Part shown: positions 1 through 8,914 of the stretch, one piece after another
How the letters are laid out: every line of letters begins with the position of its first letter
How positions within the stretch are numbered: position 1 is the stretch's first letter
DNA from: Chloroflexota bacterium
GTDB taxonomy: Bacteria > Chloroflexota > Anaerolineae > J036 > Brachytrichaceae
Assembly (NCBI GenBank): GCA_031368515.1
Contig: JANMNW010000674.1
Span: forward strand, 3,969 to 67,968
Length of the DNA stretch: 64,000 nt
Direction of reading: 5' to 3'
Position numbers and translations under genes: made by a program
Notes under the pieces: model-generated
Told to the model about the DNA's origin: nothing
The model's input: the letters and a program-made list of their open reading frames with translations, nothing else
Database searches by the model: none

Positions 1-471
1 ATCGAAGCGGCGGCGATTCCGTTCCCCACCCCGCCCGGCGGCAAGCCCGCCACGATCGTAATCGGCAACGACATCCAGTCGCCACTCAAAGGCGGCAAGA
101 ATCCGGATCTGGCGATAAAGATGCTTGAGGAAACGGTCACCAATCCGGACACGCAAGCATGGCTGGCCAACAACGCCGGCATCTGGATTCCGGCGCTCAA
201 GTCGTTGCTGGAACAGCACAAAACATACGACAAGCTGGGCGGCTACAAGACCGACACCGCCAAGACCATGGTGCGCGTGACCATGGATACGTTGCTCAAC
301 GGCAACTCCGGGCCGCTGCCCGGCTGGCCCAAGAATGGTTCGCGCATCTGGACATCATGGAACGACATGTATGGCCGGATCTGGAAGGGCAAGCTCGGCA
401 AGGACGACGTCAAGAAAGAGCTGGATACCCTGCAAACCACCATTGAAGGCCTGGTGAAGAAGTCGGGTTAA
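1..471 (+). CDS. ABC transporter extracellular solute-binding protein, C-terminal part (5' end outside window)
   Basis: Frame 1 is open from base 1 to TAA at 469-471. Two MalF/MalG-type permease genes follow on the same strand. The family call rests mainly on this context. Confidence 0.55.
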   Translation: MEAAAIPFPTPPGGKPATIVIGNDIQSPLKGGKNPDLAIKMLEETVTNPDTQAWLANNAGIWIPALKSLLEQHKTYDKLGGYKTDTAKTMVRVTMDTLLNGNSGPLPGWPKNGSRIWTSWNDMYGRIWKGKLGKDDVKKELDTLQTTIEGLVKKSG

Positions 472-590
472 GCCGGTAGCCGGTAAGCGGTGGGTCGGTG
501 AGGCGGTGGAGCCGTGAGGCGGTGGGCGGTCCACTGCTCACCGCTCTACCGACCCACTGCCCACCGCTCTACCGTCCCACTGCCTGCAGA
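472..590 (+). repeat. Intercistronic G-rich/C-rich repeat block able to fold into imperfect long stem-loops
   Basis: GCCGGTA x2 (472-485) and GTGAGGCGGTGG-like units x2 (about 499-526) are followed by a 24-nt tandem direct repeat, CTCACCGCTCTACCGACCCACTGC / CCACCGCTCTACCGTCCCACTGC (537-583). This repeat is largely complementary to the G-rich units; for example 490-499 GTGGGTCGGT pairs perfectly with 548-557 ACCGACCCAC. Confidence 0.6.
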
Positions 591-1559
591 GTTCAGAAAG
601 ACACCGTGAACACACCTCCACACCAACCTGTCTTGTCGCCTGCGCCGCTGTCACCGAGCCAGCGCTTTGGACGCTGGTATCGCCGGCGCCGCGACGCGAT
701 CGTGGCATGGACGTTTCTGACGCCGATGGTGATCTACTTTGTGGTCATGACGTTTGTGCCGCTGGCGTTTCTGATCGGCATCAGCTTTACCGAATGGAAC
801 ATTATCTCGCCGCCCCAATGGGTGGGATTGCGCAACTTGAAGACCGTGTTCTCCAGTTTCGACAATTGGTTCTATCCGCGCGTGATCGGCCGCACCATCT
901 TGTATGCCGTCGCGATTCTGACTCTCAATATTGCTGGCGGTTTTTTTGTTGCCCTGGTGCTCAATCAATCGCTCAAAGGCAAGGGCTTGTTTCGGACGAT
1001 GTGGTATGTGCCGTCGGTGTTCTCCGGAGCGGTCGTCGCGCTGCTGCTCAAAATCTATCTGGCCGGATCGTCGATCGGCGTGCTCAACATGCTCATCGGC
1101 AATTTCGGCTTCGAACCGGTGGATTGGGTCAACCACCATGTGTGGATGCCGATCATCGGCGTGCTGTTCGTGGTGTGGCAGGGCATTGGCTTCACCGTGA
1201 TTTTCTTTTTGGCTGGCTTGCAGGCCATCGACGAAAACCTGTATGACGCCGCAAAAATCGACGGCGCCAACAGCCGCCAGCTGCTGCGCTTTATCACCAT
1301 CCCGCAAATGATTCCGGTGCTGTTGTTCATCTCGGTCACCGGCTTGATCGGCTCCATGCAGATGTGGGAAGTGCCCAAGATCATCACCGCCGGCGGGCCG
1401 AATTACATGACATACACGCTCGTCTACAGCATTCAAAACGACTCCTTCGCCGCCCTGGACATGGGCATGGGAACGGCGCAGTCGCTGGTGCTGTTCGCCA
1501 TGCTGCTGGTGTTCATCGGTTGGCAGCTGAATCAGTATCGCCAGCAACACGGGGTATAG
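498..1559 (+). CDS. Carbohydrate ABC transporter permease (MalF/UgpA-type)
   Basis: Polytopic hydrophobic ORF with the EAA-loop signature YDAAKIDGANSRQLLRFITIPQM. The first ~36 codons run through the repeat block and are probably not coding; GTG at 606 is a plausible true start. Confidence 0.85.
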   Translation: MRRWSREAVGGPLLTALPTHCPPLYRPTACRVQKDTVNTPPHQPVLSPAPLSPSQRFGRWYRRRRDAIVAWTFLTPMVIYFVVMTFVPLAFLIGISFTEWNIISPPQWVGLRNLKTVFSSFDNWFYPRVIGRTILYAVAILTLNIAGGFFVALVLNQSLKGKGLFRTMWYVPSVFSGAVVALLLKIYLAGSSIGVLNMLIGNFGFEPVDWVNHHVWMPIIGVLFVVWQGIGFTVIFFLAGLQAIDENLYDAAKIDGANSRQLLRFITIPQMIPVLLFISVTGLIGSMQMWEVPKIITAGGPNYMTYTLVYSIQNDSFAALDMGMGTAQSLVLFAMLLVFIGWQLNQYRQQHGV

Positions 1560-1573
1560 CCCGAACGCCACCC

Positions 1574-2458
1574 ATGAAAAATCAACGCTTCATTGTGCGC
1601 ACGCTGAGCTACCTGTTTCTCGGCGTGTCCAGCTTCATCATGATCTACCCGGTGCTGTTTATGGCGCTGGGCGCCTTCACAACAAAAAACCGCTTTCTTG
1701 AAGCGGATATCCTGCCCATCCCAAACACATTTAATGTCACGCTGTTTCAACGGGCGCTGGGCGCCGGCGTGTGGGACGCCTACGTGTTCACGCTGCAGCG
1801 CTGCGCGTTTTACATCGTCATCACGCTGTTCGTCGGGCTGCTGGGCGGCTACATCTTTTCAAAACTTAACTTTCCCGGCAAGAACAAGGTCTTCCTGCTC
1901 TTTCTATCGGGCATGGTGATGCCTGGCATCCTGATGCTGGTGCCCATGTATCTGTTGATGGCGTGGTTTCCGTTCTTCGGCGGCAACAACTGGCTGGGCC
2001 AGGGTGGACATGGGTTGATTGGCCAATGGCCGGTGCTATTCGTCTATGGCTGGGTGCCGCCGTTTGCCATCTTCCTGTTCAAGCAAAGTTTTGACATGCT
2101 GCCGAGCGAATACGAAGACGCCGCAAAAATGGACGGCGCGGGCATGTTCACGATCATCTTTCGCATCTACGGGCCGTTGCTTAAGCCGCCCATCGTCGCG
2201 CTGTTTATCGTCACATTCCTGGGCGTGTGGAACGAATATCTCTGGCCCAGCCTGACCATTGCCGGGCACCCGGAGTTCTACCCCATCGCCTATCGCATCC
2301 AGAGCGTCATTCTCTCGGACTACTCGCCAGTCGGAACGACCGACTATCCGGCTTTGATGGTGCGCACTTTTCTGGCCACATGGCCGCCGGCGCTGGTGTA
2401 CTTCCTGCTGCAGCGCTACTTCGTTCAGGGTCTGGTCGCAAGCGGGTTGAAAGGTTGA
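1574..2458 (+). CDS. Carbohydrate ABC transporter permease (MalG/UgpE-type)
   Basis: ATG at 1574 (MKNQRFIVRTLSYLFLG...) lies within the longer 1364 ORF. Six hydrophobic segments; EAA loop YEDAAKMDGAGMFTIIFRIYGPLLKP. Confidence 0.85.
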   Translation: MKNQRFIVRTLSYLFLGVSSFIMIYPVLFMALGAFTTKNRFLEADILPIPNTFNVTLFQRALGAGVWDAYVFTLQRCAFYIVITLFVGLLGGYIFSKLNFPGKNKVFLLFLSGMVMPGILMLVPMYLLMAWFPFFGGNNWLGQGGHGLIGQWPVLFVYGWVPPFAIFLFKQSFDMLPSEYEDAAKMDGAGMFTIIFRIYGPLLKPPIVALFIVTFLGVWNEYLWPSLTIAGHPEFYPIAYRIQSVILSDYSPVGTTDYPALMVRTFLATWPPALVYFLLQRYFVQGLVASGLKG

Positions 2459-2459
2459 C

Positions 2460-4133
2460 GTGGCGGACATTCAGGGGGTTCCGCGACACGGGCGCACACG
2501 GGCGCTGCCGCAAGCGCGGCAGCCGGCGGTTGTCACGCAGCCGCGCGCGCATCTGGCGCTGAAGCGCGGCGTCGATGCGATCGTCAACGCCATCCGGCCC
2601 ACGCTCGGCCCGCTGCCGAGGCTGGTGGTGATGGAAGGGCTACGGCCCACCGATTTGCCGGAGTTTCTCGACGACGCCGCCACCATCGCCCGGCGCATCA
2701 TCGAGATCCGCCCACGCAGCGACGATGTCGGCGCCATGCTGATCCGCCACGCGCTGGCGCGCATGCAGCGCGACGCCGGCGACGGCGGCGCCACTATGGC
2801 GGTGATCTACCAAGCCCTTTTGCATGAAGGGTTGCGCTCGCTGATGCATTTTGGCGCCAACGCCGCGCTGCTGCGCAACGGGTTGGAGCGCGCCCTGCCC
2901 CTGGTGCTGAAAGCGCTGCGGGCGGAGGCAACGCCGCTGACGGGACGCGCCGCCCTGTCGGATTTGGCGTTGAGCATGTGCCAGGGCGATGCCAGCCTGG
3001 CCGCCGTAATTGGCGAAGTCTTCGACATTGTCGGCGCGGATGGCTTGATCGTGGTCGAAGGCTGGAACCGCCTGGGGCAGGAGCGCGAATACGTCGAAGG
3101 CACCTATTGGAAGCTCAGCGGCTGGACCTCGCGCCTTTTCGCGACGGAAGCGGCGCATAAGCGCACCGTGTTCGAAGACGCGGCGCTGCTGATCACCGAT
3201 TTCGATCTGAGAGACCCGCAACAGCTTGTGCCGGTTCTGGAGCGCTGCATCGGCACGGGCGTAAAGAAGCTGGTCATCACCGCCGCAGGCGCGTCCGATG
3301 CGGTCACCGGCCTGCTGGTCAGCAACAACAAAGCCGGATCGATTGACAGCATGATCGTGCGCGTGCCACAAGCCTCCGAGATGGGCCGGGTGGCAGCCAT
3401 GGATGACATCGCCGCGATGGTCGGCGGTCGTCCGTTGTGCGCCGCGGCCTTCTCCGACTTCGAGTCGTTTGCGCCAGCCGATCTGGGTCGTGCCCGGCGC
3501 ATCTGGGCCACCGAAAGCATGTTTGGCTTTTTTGGCGGCAAAGGCGATCCGCGCAAGCTGCGGCAACACATGGCGCAGGTGCGCGGCGCGCTGCGGCAAG
3601 CCGACGATGCCCATCAAAAATCCGAGCTGCAGTCGCGCTTGGGGCGATTGAGCGGCGGCACCGCCATCCTGCGCGTCGGAGGCATCCACGATGTCGAACG
3701 CGATGCGCGAAAAGCGCTGGCCGAGCGCGCTGTCACCGGCATGCGCAATGCGGTGAGCGGCGGTGTGGTGGCCGGCGGCGGGGGCGCGCTGCTCGCAGCG
3801 CAAGCGGCTCTGGCGCAGCCGCGCGCCTGCGCGCCAGGCGAAGCCCTTGCGTTTCAGATCCTGGCGCGCGCGCTGGAAGCGCCCATGCGCGCCATCGCCC
3901 ACAACGCCGGTCGCGCGCCCGATGTCGTGATCGAACATGCGCGCGCGGCCGGACCCGGCGCAGGCTTCGATGCGCGCAACAGACGCATTGTCAACATGCG
4001 CGAGGCGCGCGTCTTCGATTCCGCCGAAACACTCTGCCGCGCGCTCGAAATTGCCGTGAGCGGCGCGGCCATGGCCCTGACCACCGATGTGATCGTGCAT
4101 CACCGCAATCCGATCGAGAGCATCGACCCGTGA
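2460..4133 (+). CDS. Divergent Cpn60/GroEL-family protein (chaperonin paralogue with degenerate ATPase motifs)
   Basis: Collinear with GroEL by eye: TLGPLPRLVV (GroEL TLGPKGRNVV), AGDGGATMAVIYQAL (AGDGTTTATVLAQAI), LSGGTAILRVGG (LAGGVAVIKVGA), GGVVAGGGGALL (EGVVAGGGVALI). GTG start 1 nt after the permease stop. No GGM-rich C-terminal tail. Confidence 0.8.
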   Translation: MADIQGVPRHGRTRALPQARQPAVVTQPRAHLALKRGVDAIVNAIRPTLGPLPRLVVMEGLRPTDLPEFLDDAATIARRIIEIRPRSDDVGAMLIRHALARMQRDAGDGGATMAVIYQALLHEGLRSLMHFGANAALLRNGLERALPLVLKALRAEATPLTGRAALSDLALSMCQGDASLAAVIGEVFDIVGADGLIVVEGWNRLGQEREYVEGTYWKLSGWTSRLFATEAAHKRTVFEDAALLITDFDLRDPQQLVPVLERCIGTGVKKLVITAAGASDAVTGLLVSNNKAGSIDSMIVRVPQASEMGRVAAMDDIAAMVGGRPLCAAAFSDFESFAPADLGRARRIWATESMFGFFGGKGDPRKLRQHMAQVRGALRQADDAHQKSELQSRLGRLSGGTAILRVGGIHDVERDARKALAERAVTGMRNAVSGGVVAGGGGALLAAQAALAQPRACAPGEALAFQILARALEAPMRAIAHNAGRAPDVVIEHARAAGPGAGFDARNRRIVNMREARVFDSAETLCRALEIAVSGAAMALTTDVIVHHRNPIESIDP

Positions 4134-4152
4134 CTTCGCCGTCCAACTCCGC

Positions 4153-5982
4153 ATGGAAAAACGCCCCCTAGCCCAAGGCCCGGCTTTGACCGCCGCCGGA
4201 CACCTGCCAGCTGGCACGCCAACCGCGCTGGCGCTGGCAGGCGCCGACAACCGCACGCTGCTGCTGGGAAGCAAGATCGGCATTCATCGCTGCGCCGATT
4301 GGCTGCAAGCCTCGCCACGCTGGGAACGCCTGCCTAACGCGCCGCTGGGCGTGATTGCGCTGGCCGCATCTCCTGATTTCGACAACGACCATACCCTCGT
4401 CGCCAGCACGCAAGCGGACATATTTATCTCGCGCGATGGCGGGGCCACCTGGCAGCCGGCGAATTTGCCGCCGCCCCACCCGCTGATTCTGTGCCTCGCA
4501 TTTTCACCTGGATTTGCCGAAGACGGGATGATTGTGGCGGGCACCATGGAAGACGGCGTGATCGTCTCGGACGACCGCGGCGCGCACTGGCAACGCCGCA
4601 ATTTCGGCCTGCTTGACGCCGCCGTCTACGCCATCGCGTTTTCACCCAGCTTTTCAGCCGACGGCACGTTGTATGCCGGCGCGGAGTCGGCTCTTTACAA
4701 AAGTTACAACCGGGCCAAAGCCTGGAAGCCGCTCGATTTCGATGAAACGGCTGCGCCGGTGCTCAGCCTGGCGATCGACGGCGCCGGCGCGCTTTTCGCC
4801 GGAACGGAGGCCAGCGGGCTGTTTCGCCTGGATAACGGGCTAACTTTATGGCAGCGTTGTGATCTTGCGCCCGGCACGGTCAATGCATTGACTGCGACTC
4901 GCGATGGCCGGGTGATCGCGGCTACTCACGAAGGCGTGTACGAGGCTGCGAAAGGCCAGACTGACTGGCGCCAAGTGTTGCGGGCGCCGGTGCTCAGTGT
5001 GTGCGCGCACCCGTCCGGCGTGTTTGCCAGTGTGATCGAGGGAGGCTTGTGGTCACAAACCGGCGCGGACGAATGGCGCCCGCTGGGAACGCCGCCGATC
5101 CGTTCGGTCAGCGGTTGCGTGTTGTCGCCGCATGTGCCGAGCGGCGAAAAAGTGTATGCGCATGGGCTGCAAGAAGGCATCTGGTCGAGCGTCGACGGCG
5201 GCACAACCTGGCAATCGCTTAATGACGAACTGCCCGCGATTGATGTGCATGCGCTCGCTATCTCGCCGGCCGCTGGCACTCTGGCGGCCGCCACGCCCGA
5301 CGGCATCGTGCTGAGCGACAACGACGGCGCAACCTGGCGCATCGCGCGCGAAGGTGCCGCCACACGGGTGTGCTTTTCGCCGGACGGCGGCGCGCTGGCG
5401 GCGGTCTTCAACGACTGCGACGTGCTAACCGGTTCGCGCGACGGCGCAGCCTGGCGCGACTGCGCGATCCCTTGGCCGGGCGACAGTCGCATTTTGGCTT
5501 TGGCGCTGCGCGATGACGGGATGCTATGCGTGGCGGCGCAGCAGCGCGAAGCGGTGTGCATTTGGTCCGGACGACCCGGCGCGTGGCGCGCGGTGCTGCG
5601 CCTGGACTCAATGCCCAACGCAACGGTCTCGTTTGAGGGAGCGGAACGGCCCGGGCGCTGGCATGCCAGCATCGGTCACACGGTTTTCATGTTCGAGCAG
5701 GATGCGCTTGCGGCTCAGGGCGTAATTCAGCCCAAAGACGAGGCCATGGCGACGGTTCTCGGCTTGTGCGGCGCAACACATGCCGGCCGGCATGTGCTCT
5801 TCGCCAATACCGGCAGGCGAATACTGCGCTCCGAGTCGGTCACGGACTGGCGCATCGTGCATGACTTTGGCGAAGACATCGCGCTTGCATTGGCCCTGGG
5901 CAAGCCATCGGCCGGAAAGGCAAGCGTGTGCGCGCTGGTGCTGGGCGGCGAGTTCCAGCGCGGCGTTTTTGACCTGACCTGA
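4153..5982 (+). CDS. BNR/Asp-box repeat beta-propeller protein (Ycf48/sialidase-like fold)
   Basis: Four S-x-D-x-G-x-(T/H)-W Asp-boxes: SRDGGATW, SDDRGAHW, SVDGGTTW, SDNDGATW. No obvious signal peptide at the N-terminus. Confidence 0.7.
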   Translation: MEKRPLAQGPALTAAGHLPAGTPTALALAGADNRTLLLGSKIGIHRCADWLQASPRWERLPNAPLGVIALAASPDFDNDHTLVASTQADIFISRDGGATWQPANLPPPHPLILCLAFSPGFAEDGMIVAGTMEDGVIVSDDRGAHWQRRNFGLLDAAVYAIAFSPSFSADGTLYAGAESALYKSYNRAKAWKPLDFDETAAPVLSLAIDGAGALFAGTEASGLFRLDNGLTLWQRCDLAPGTVNALTATRDGRVIAATHEGVYEAAKGQTDWRQVLRAPVLSVCAHPSGVFASVIEGGLWSQTGADEWRPLGTPPIRSVSGCVLSPHVPSGEKVYAHGLQEGIWSSVDGGTTWQSLNDELPAIDVHALAISPAAGTLAAATPDGIVLSDNDGATWRIAREGAATRVCFSPDGGALAAVFNDCDVLTGSRDGAAWRDCAIPWPGDSRILALALRDDGMLCVAAQQREAVCIWSGRPGAWRAVLRLDSMPNATVSFEGAERPGRWHASIGHTVFMFEQDALAAQGVIQPKDEAMATVLGLCGATHAGRHVLFANTGRRILRSESVTDWRIVHDFGEDIALALALGKPSAGKASVCALVLGGEFQRGVFDLT

Positions 5983-5997
5983 ACGCCGCATCATCAG

Positions 5998-6299
5998 TCA
6001 GTATGCGACGAGCCGCTGCTTCAGATCTGCGCGCACGCGCTCAAACTCCGATTGAACGGCCTCCGCATGCGCCGTCAGTCCCTCCACCGCGCCCGCGCGC
6101 GCTGCCGAATCCAAATCGGCCGCATACTGCACGAGCCGTGCCGCGCCGATGAAGCGTGAGCCGGCCGCGATCTGCTGAGCAATCGTTCGCGCGGTTTCGT
6201 GATCGCGCGCGCGCGCCGATTCAGTCAGGCGCGCAATCTGCGCCGAAAGGTCATCCAAATACACGGATGCGACCGCGCCGGCTGTTTGATCCGAGCCGT

Positions 6300-6312
<13 letters not shown>
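5998..6312 (-). CDS. Hpt-like four-helix protein; canonical phospho-accepting His position is Gln
   Basis: 104 aa, helical. ARTIAQQIAAGSRFIGAARL aligns with the Hpt signature A-H-x-L-K-G-S-x-x-x-x-G-A but has Q at the His position. The start overlaps the stop of the hybrid kinase by 13 nt. Confidence 0.45.

Positions 6313-8914
<2,602 letters not shown>

Follow-up and report, generated by a model that had tools for sequence, protein, structure and literature searches.

Organisation of the locus

The DNA stretch analysed here (the window) comprises 64,000 nucleotides of a Chloroflexota bacterium, taken from positions 3969–67968 of contig C615 of a 5.9-Mb metagenome-assembled genome (MAG) in 677 contigs, and our subject is a gene near its 5′ end which encodes a divergent relative of the chaperonin GroEL (Cpn60). 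The gene is situated between the second permease gene of a CUT1-type sugar ABC importer and a gene for a BNR/Asp-box β-propeller. An initial annotation, which drew on the sequence alone, had described it as a degenerate GroEL paralogue that may have a role dedicated to the transporter or the propeller. The features of this region are listed below, with residues of Escherichia coli GroEL (from NC_000913, in a MAFFT alignment) used as the numbering ruler.

1–471, forward strand: 3′ end of the gene for the substrate-binding lipoprotein of a CUT1 ABC importer, identified by reading the upstream contig
498–1559, forward strand: ABC permease 1 (BPD_transp_1, UgpA/MalF-like), whose real start is probably downstream of 498
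1364–2458, forward strand: ABC permease 2 (BPD_transp_1, UgpE/MalG-like), whose real start is probably near 1560
2460–4133, forward strand: divergent Cpn60/GroEL-derived protein, assigned with Pfam, NCBIfam, alignment to GroEL structures and an AlphaFold2 (AF2) model
2601–2621, forward strand: TLGPLPR, protein residues 48–54, equivalent to E. coli T30–R36 (TLGPKGR), with TLGP kept, K34 changed to Leu and G35 to Pro
2670–2675, forward strand: D71–D72, equivalent to E. coli K51–D52, with K51 changed to Asp (120 of 121 in the family) and D52 kept
2778–2795, forward strand: GDGGAT, protein residues 107–112, equivalent to E. coli G86–T91 (GDGTTT), with D87, G88 and T91 invariant across the family and T89 and T90 variable
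3099–3140, forward strand: apical family motif GTYWKLSGWTSRLF in place of GMQFDRGYLSPYF, with R197 lost, Y199 changed to Trp and F204 kept
3726–3728, forward strand: codon for R423, equivalent to the catalytic D398 of E. coli GroEL in phmmer and MAFFT alignments
4098–4130, forward strand: C-terminal tail HHRNPIESIDP, standing where a Gly-Met tail would be
4153–5982, forward strand: BNR/Asp-box tandem double β-propeller of 609 residues, assigned with Pfam, NCBIfam (below cut-off), AF2 and Foldseek

The gene boundaries agree with those annotated initially. Permease 2 ends with TGA at 2456–2458 and a single base separates it from the GTG start, at 2460, of the 557-residue Cpn60-like open reading frame (ORF), with a Shine-Dalgarno-like GAAAGG at 2449–2454, 6–11 nt 5′ of this start. 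Likewise, the Cpn60-like gene ends with TGA at 4131–4133 and the propeller gene begins with ATG at 4153, leaving a gap of 19 nt, and the ORF that follows does encode the Asp-box propeller that had been proposed.

A group I chaperonin fold with an altered nucleotide site

The window protein matched Pfam PF00118 (Cpn60_TCP1) with 125.4 bits, against a gathering cut-off of 34.3, and missed every curated cut-off of the NCBIfam GroEL models, with 315 bits for TIGR02348 (cut-off 582.1) and 349 for the best subfamily model, PRK12849 (cut-off 352). Thermosome and CCT models gave 30–33 bits against cut-offs of 400–671 and aligned with the C-terminal 150 residues only, while all of the best PDB and NCBIfam matches were group I chaperonins. 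Using phmmer against PDB sequences, residues 27–549 aligned with residues 8–525 of Thermus GroEL (E 1e-72), and the alignment to E. coli GroEL was similar, with a few indels of 1–2 residues; the end-to-end relationship to GroEL that had been noted thus stands, but not its description as free of gaps. An AF2 model (predicted local distance difference test score, pLDDT, 86) gave a complete GroEL-like subunit with a disordered C-terminal tail and N-terminal 22 residues. Its template modelling (TM) scores were 0.80–0.83 to GroES-bound (‘football/cis’) GroEL subunits and 0.57–0.62 to apo GroEL, which is weak evidence for a predicted preference for the GroES-bound-like conformation. The gene product has a full-length group I chaperonin fold but is not GroEL proper.

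Formal alignment to E. coli GroEL also bore out the residue changes that had been read from the translation. GDGTTT is replaced by GDGGAT and TLGPKGR by TLGPLPR, and Arg (R423) remains at the position of Asp398 in both the phmmer and MAFFT alignments, with the phosphate-binding loop still degenerate. The equivalents of Asp52 and Asp87 are retained as D72 and D108, as had been suspected, and GGG414–416 and D495 are also present, which leaves the nucleotide-site set T30–P33, D52, D87, T91, G414–416 and D495 fully kept. In addition, the allosteric and inter-subunit salt-bridge network (the pairs R197–E386 and D83–K327, with E209 and E255/E257) is changed (R197S, D83R, K327E, E209A and E255S), and the Gly-Met tail is absent as reported, the protein ending in HHRNPIESIDP.

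Housekeeping GroEL is encoded elsewhere in the genome

Across the whole 5.9-Mb assembly there was one Cpn10 match, on contig C372, where it lies beside a canonical groEL with intact TLGPKGRNV and GDGTTT motifs; this groEL is cut by the contig end and a C-terminal fragment is found on contig C511. No groES/Cpn10 gene was present in the window, in agreement with the initial annotation, or in any related locus inspected. A second divergent copy is encoded on contig C504 (L003:953–2644, reverse strand), which is 563 residues long, 37% identical to the window protein and contains GDGAAT, TLGPLAR and Arg at position 398, and it is followed by a short BNR propeller gene of ~275–310 residues (L003:123–950, reverse strand). 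Upstream of this paralogue, and divergently transcribed, is an M29-type aminopeptidase-like gene (MFDPRFNRMAQV...), an arrangement that recurs in locus L039.

The same division was seen in the 24 genomes of the GTDB family to which the window belongs. Each has one canonical GroEL, scoring 780–841 bits to TIGR02348, and most have 1–3 divergent copies at 240–405 bits, with a clean score gap between the two groups, while genomes sampled from 16 other families of this class mostly had a canonical copy only. The window gene is not the housekeeping GroEL of this organism, as the initial annotation had suggested, and the intact groES-groEL pair is that on C372.

The divergent copies form a conserved family

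Among 5.8 billion proteins searched there were 859 matches, and the best 120 of these were 50–98% identical to the window protein, equal to it in length, mostly named ‘chaperonin GroEL’ and mostly from MAGs of Chloroflexota, Anaerolineae, Caldilinea and Roseilinea; indeed all family members that we found are MAG sequences. Of 121 homologues, 118 have Arg at position 398 and 118 have Pro at position 35, all but one have Asp at position 51 (where E. coli has Lys and canonical Chloroflexota GroEL has His), and 112 have Gly at position 150, with either Met or Leu at 151. In this set T30–P33, D87, G88, T91, G414–416 and D495 vary little or not at all, and position 52 holds Asp or Asn. The family also replaces R197 (Ser/Gly/Thr), D83 (Glu/Gln), K327 (Asp/Glu/Arg/Ala), E209 (Ala/Gly) and E255 (Ser), all of which are invariant in the 18 canonical GroELs compared, while keeping the hinge glycines G192, G375 and G410 and part of the apical hydrophobic groove of helices H and I (F204, L237 and V263, with Y199 changed to Trp). 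Furthermore, it has motifs of its own, namely an apical GTYWKLSGW-SRLF and a C-terminal consensus HHRKPxESxEP. The terminal Pro of the latter is invariant in alignment A1 (29 sequences, 37–76% identical to the window protein), which contains 59 invariant columns. Across nine close pairs from different subclades the ratio of non-synonymous to synonymous substitution rates (dN/dS, Nei-Gojobori) was 0.10–0.22. The motif changes are the signature of a family under purifying selection and not of decay.

Phylogenetic analysis used 78 sequences, comprising 60 divergent copies, 14 canonical GroELs from related genomes and four outgroup GroELs (E. coli, Ralstonia, Paracoccus and Acaryochloris). All 60 divergent copies formed one clade apart from the canonical groELs, with 100 in the Shimodaira–Hasegawa-like approximate likelihood ratio test (SH-aLRT) and a stem of 0.63 substitutions per site, and the canonical Chloroflexota GroELs were its sister group (support 97). 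At least seven subclades can be told apart within it; Arg398 is found throughout them, except in two basal sequences that have Asp or Glu, and Asp51 is found in most, but not all, of the Arg398 subclades. An origin of the family inside Chloroflexota is likely but not proven, because the outgroup is thin and the branch is long.

A phylum-wide scan with the A1 profile detected clear members in ~12 further GTDB families, some in other classes; members were required to score >450 bits and to reach the C-terminal end of the profile, and since canonical GroELs score 420–445 bits the separation from distant family members is imperfect. As far as seen, the family appears confined to Chloroflexota. A member designated P0095 is found in a bin labelled Omnitrophica WOR_2, and L060 (JAYTNY010000212.1, labelled as a Roseobacter sp. 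MAG) has a typical Cpn60-like and permease neighbourhood and nests in a Chloroflexota subclade; both probably reflect mis-binning rather than transfer. NCBIfam release 20 contains no model for this family and full-text literature searches found no description of it, so it is apparently undescribed.

A propeller gene and sugar importer genes accompany the family

Using family-specific peptide patterns we retrieved 61 related loci from 185,579 species genomes, reading their ORFs stop-to-stop, and all of these carry a Chloroflexota label save the one ‘Roseobacter’ MAG contig. A BNR propeller gene lies directly downstream of the Cpn60-like gene in 33 of the 55 loci with at least 1 kb of downstream sequence, and in 32 of the 37 loci with at least 2.5 kb on both sides there are CUT1 permeases no more than 7 kb away. 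Only ~4% of the window's genome is as close (7 kb) to a CUT1-type permease, giving an enrichment of ~20-fold. The synteny that the initial annotation had proposed to check is conserved, for propeller and importer alike, across the 61 loci.

Orientation separates the two neighbours. The transporter may be co-directional and upstream, as in the window, or divergent, or inverted and downstream, whereas a directly downstream propeller gene is always co-directional with the Cpn60-like gene and nearly abuts it. Because the transporter is often divergently oriented, it is not its coupling with the Cpn60-like gene that is conserved: the translational coupling to an ABC transporter that had been noted is borne out in the window by the 1-nt gap, but represents one arrangement of several. 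What is conserved at the core is the Cpn60-like gene with a propeller gene after it, and retention of the neighbourhood through such rearrangements argues for a functional link. Three distant relatives have the order substrate-binding protein (SBP), permease, permease and Cpn60-like gene, two of them with a BNR propeller gene downstream, and both of the basal Asp/Glu398 members have a long propeller gene directly downstream, so the pairing is older than the D398R change. The two genes also match in type, since the orthologue clade of the window pairs with propellers of ~620–700 residues and other clades with single propellers of ~280–300 residues, and pairwise identities of the Cpn60-like proteins correlate with those of their propellers (Spearman 0.66, reached in none of 2000 permutations). 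Within single genomes each Cpn60-like paralogue has its own propeller, as do both copies in the window's genome.

Recurrent neighbours include GH29 α-L-fucosidase, an MR/MLE-type dehydratase, PhyH dioxygenases, MFS transporters and two-component systems, and by gene content these mark the clusters as carbohydrate-utilisation loci. No ABC ATPase gene was found in the inspected Cpn60-like clusters; CUT1 systems are usually without an ATPase gene of their own and share the ATPase. A short-propeller subclade (L037, L038, L040, L047, L049, L053 and L061) carries, 3′ of the propeller gene, a conserved block of a GH29 α-L-fucosidase (PF01120, 299 bits) and two MFS-type transporters, which suggests a fucoside-utilisation locus. 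Elsewhere, in L006/L016 (Roseilinea), L059 and L067, one or two PhyH-family dioxygenase genes occupy the place of the propeller, and in Roseilinea these are followed by genes for an MR/MLE dehydratase, an unannotated 768-residue protein and a GH28-like protein.

The window propeller is predicted to resemble GH74 enzymes in fold

The 609-residue propeller encoded in the window matched the Pfam PSII_BNR/BNR families, and scored below the cut-off of the NCBIfam F510_1955 ‘glycosylhydrolase’ model. It has no signal peptide and is therefore expected to be cytoplasmic. Its AF2 model (pLDDT 90.3; predicted TM score 0.87) is a tandem double propeller, and the best Foldseek matches to this were GH74 xyloglucanases (TMq 0.66–0.70, 12–16% identity). 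Like these enzymes (PDB 6P2M and 7KN8) it is predicted to be a tandem double seven-bladed propeller of BNR type, but unlike them it is ~100 residues shorter, is not exported by a signal peptide and shares so little sequence identity; a further departure from the GH74 architecture is that other subclades pair with a single propeller of ~280 residues. The mass of the window propeller is 66 kDa, while the limit of the GroEL-GroES cage is ~60 kDa, which would fit a non-encapsulating mode of action if the propeller is the client.

Other sequence features

The SBP gene upstream is complete on the parent contig (C615 2907–4439) and encodes a twin-arginine lipoprotein signal (SRRDFV...LSAC), with orthologues scoring 520–890 bits in 22 related loci. 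G+C content is ~57% over the permease genes (501–2500) and ~67% over the Cpn60-like and propeller genes (2001–4500), a step that probably reflects the codon content of membrane proteins rather than foreign origin. Scans for promoters and terminators over window positions 1–6500 gave counts equal to those expected from shuffled sequence. Likewise, no site resembling the controlling inverted repeat of chaperone expression (CIRCE) was found in positions 1–6500 at up to five mismatches. When the whole assembly was searched at up to three mismatches a single site was detected, at C284:6273–6299 (TTAGCACTC-N9-CAGTGCTAA), and none elsewhere, the groES contig C372 included.

A proposed specialised chaperonin for a propeller, and the alternatives

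The reading we favour, and to which we give about an even chance, is that the window protein, as a specialised chaperonin or an assembly partner, works independently of GroES with an altered ATPase cycle and serves the propeller in sugar-utilisation loci. The family would have arisen by duplication of a group I chaperonin, with or beside a BNR propeller gene, after which Asp398 would have changed to Arg and the allosteric salt-bridge residues and the Gly-Met tail would have been lost, while the three-domain fold persisted, together with the hinge glycines and most of the residues that contact nucleotide. The protein would then bind nucleotide with hydrolysis that is slow, altered or non-cycling, and would act without GroES. 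Its private client would chiefly be the co-encoded cytoplasmic propeller, which it may fold, hold or stably partner, and it would be made along with the CUT1 importer, only when the sugar-utilisation locus is expressed. Here we infer three things, namely nucleotide binding without normal hydrolysis, independence of GroES, and the propeller as client or partner. Impaired hydrolysis is suggested by analogy with the E. coli D398A protein, which was reportedly found by Rye et al. in 1997 to bind ATP and GroES and to hydrolyse at ~2% of the wild-type rate. The initial proposal of a role dedicated to the transporter or the propeller gains strong support from the conserved synteny together with the family signature under purifying selection.

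Several observations weigh against this reading. About 40% of loci have no propeller gene directly downstream, and two subclades (L055–58/63 and L057/59/67/70) have the order SBP, permease, permease and Cpn60-like gene with no propeller gene at all, so the propeller cannot be the sole partner. Propeller homologues of ~300 residues also occur without a Cpn60-like neighbour, and the correlation between the two proteins is partly due to shared species phylogeny. A gene fusion of the Cpn60-like protein with a propeller was looked for and not found; open frames of 657–898 residues that might have served as such a Rosetta stone are upstream read-through and not propeller fusions. In addition, the apical hydrophobic residues are partly conserved, and the protein may use the single GroES of the genome, while retention of D52 and D87 means that it may have residual ATPase activity.

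We also consider, more tentatively, a stronger form of the favoured reading, which we regard as possible but rather doubtful. This is that the family would constitute a private Chloroflexota machine without GroES or the classical ATP-driven allostery, which would be a dedicated partner in the folding or assembly, or a permanent subunit, of BNR propeller enzymes in sugar-utilisation loci, and the group I counterpart of the relationship between eukaryotic CCT/BBS proteins and propellers, with the in-cis Arg398 later paired with the new Asp at position 51.

Alternatively, the protein could be an accessory factor linked to the transporter, for example chaperoning assembly of the permeases or the exported SBP, or coupling transport to cytoplasmic processing, with the propeller often adjacent but of secondary importance. 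No neighbour is more frequent than the permeases (the 32 of 37 loci given above), the Cpn60-like gene directly follows permease 2 in 13 of these 37, as it does in the window, the two propeller-less subclades retain the full transporter order, and all SBPs of Cpn60-like operons carry twin-arginine lipoprotein signals. We nevertheless judge this explanation unlikely. The transporter is often divergent, inverted or several kb away, one of the two basal Asp/Glu398 loci, like some other loci (L032 and L065), has a propeller gene with no permease within range (in L097, the second basal locus, an SBP-like ORF lies at the contig edge), and we know of no precedent for a chaperonin subunit of an ABC importer. 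Moreover, eight of the 13 CUT1 SBPs in the window's genome are twin-arginine proteins from operons without a Cpn60-like gene, and the idea of a chaperone for SBPs exported by twin-arginine translocation (Tat) was rejected as being without specific support. With eight of the 13 SBP genes (which include C130:4371–5882, C231:1538–3004 and C420:50480–51952) encoding the pattern S/T-RR-x-F/L-L, this organism seems to make common use of Tat-type export for its binding lipoproteins. Somewhat less probable again is a non-chaperone use of the Cpn60 fold, as a stable structural or regulatory pseudo-ATPase scaffold in a sugar-processing complex with the propeller, where Arg398, paired with D51, D52 and D87, would fill the γ-phosphate/Mg2+ site and lock the subunit in a closed-like state without ATP turnover. 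Consistent with such a salt bridge, D398R came first and an acidic residue at 51 followed in most Arg398 subclades, and the loss of the allosteric network, the extended, GroES-bound-like conformation of the AF2 subunit and the conserved C-terminal peptide ending in Pro would all suit a scaffold. However, invariance of T91, G88, TLGP, GGG and D495 argues that nucleotide is still bound, the conformation chosen by AF2 carries little weight, and no fusion or further direct indication of a stable complex emerged.

We think it improbable that the gene encodes an ordinary extra GroEL, that is a redundant or condition-specific general chaperonin of the kind found in rhizobia, myxobacteria and cyanobacteria, which works with the single GroES of the genome and whose position is incidental. 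The full-length GroEL fold and the partly kept hydrophobic residues of helices H and I would allow this, and stand-alone groEL genes are common, with 770 of 4,861 genomes having a groEL that lacks an adjacent groES (PMC5406781). Against it, 118 of 121 homologues have another residue in place of the catalytic Asp and the allosteric residues have changed, the protein falls short of every NCBIfam GroEL cut-off and has no GGM tail, the synteny is enriched ~20-fold over background and kept through rearrangements, and the family is a separate long-branched clade with conserved motifs of its own. That the gene is a decaying pseudogene or an annotation artefact is next to impossible: the degenerate catalytic motifs might suggest it when taken in isolation, but the frame is intact over 557 codons, and it was rejected on the dN/dS values, the 59 invariant A1 columns and hundreds of homologues of equal length.

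Specialised GroEL paralogues are known, few of them with an identifiable client, and to our knowledge none combines a fixed replacement of the catalytic Asp with a conserved gene partner. The Cpn60-like protein and its propeller are a tractable pair, expressible in E. coli, for asking how the chaperonin fold is repurposed, whether Arg398 can support a different nucleotide cycle, and whether bacterial β-propellers need a dedicated chaperonin as eukaryotic WD40 proteins do. In practical terms, hundreds of MAG proteins from Anaerolineae and other Chloroflexota that are now named ‘chaperonin GroEL’ belong to this divergent family, and these should be left out of any count of housekeeping GroEL in cpn60-based surveys or proteostasis inventories.

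Comparison with known systems

Canonical GroEL (E. coli GroEL and Thermus Cpn60; PDB 1AON and 4V4O) shares with the family the three-domain fold at ~28–32% identity, and also the hinge glycines, TLGP, D52, D87, T91, GGG414–416, D495 and part of the H/I groove. In contrast, the family has R398, D51, P35 and changes at I150 and S151, has lost R197, D83, K327, E209 and E255, carries an N-terminal extension of ~20 residues and the HHRKPxESxEP C-terminus in place of GGM, and is encoded in sugar-utilisation loci with a propeller gene and no adjacent groES.

The closest bacterial analogues are chlamydial GroEL2 and GroEL3, which nonetheless represent a different family. These lack a GroES, have altered ATP-binding/hydrolysis and GroES-binding regions, are not heat-inducible and have specialised roles that are unknown (PMC1892554). 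The Chloroflexota family is likewise an extra GroEL paralogue with an altered ATP site and without GroES, but the window protein scored 91.2 and 96.9 bits with the chlamydial models (NF038370 and NF038369) against a cut-off of 600, and its fixed D398R change and conserved gene partner are unreported in that other phylum.

Specialised paralogues in other bacteria, which we take to retain the catalytic Asp and a canonical P-loop, offer a further parallel. Mycobacterium Cpn60.1/GroEL1, Myxococcus GroEL2, cyanobacterial GroEL2 and the rhizobial copies are such specialised proteins (PMC5904260, PMC3578752, PMC5381637). They resemble the Chloroflexota family as duplicated GroELs with a non-canonical C-terminus and no adjacent groES, their roles being client- or process-specific, whereas a conserved propeller or ABC-importer neighbourhood is unreported for them. 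Reviews of multiple bacterial chaperonins list five phyla, with Chloroflexi unmentioned (PMC5904260, PMC11978752).

In logic, the nearest analogues are eukaryotic: MKKS/BBS6, BBS10 and BBS12 keep the Gly-Pro dipeptide of the ATP-binding site while their hydrolysis motifs are degenerate (PMC2846930). The Chloroflexota proteins are similarly divergent chaperonin paralogues, in which the nucleotide-site Gly-Pro is kept and hydrolysis motifs are degenerate; unlike them, the BBS proteins are derived from group II chaperonins, are eukaryotic and are not operon-encoded. BBS6, BBS10 and BBS12 reportedly act with CCT in assembly of the BBSome (Seo et al., PNAS, 2010), core subunits of which contain β-propellers, and CCT is the obligate folder of WD40 propellers. 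The likeness is one of logic, with homology only at the level of the Cpn60_TCP1 superfamily. Were the stronger form of the favoured reading true, the Chloroflexota pair would provide bacteria with a group I counterpart to this relationship.

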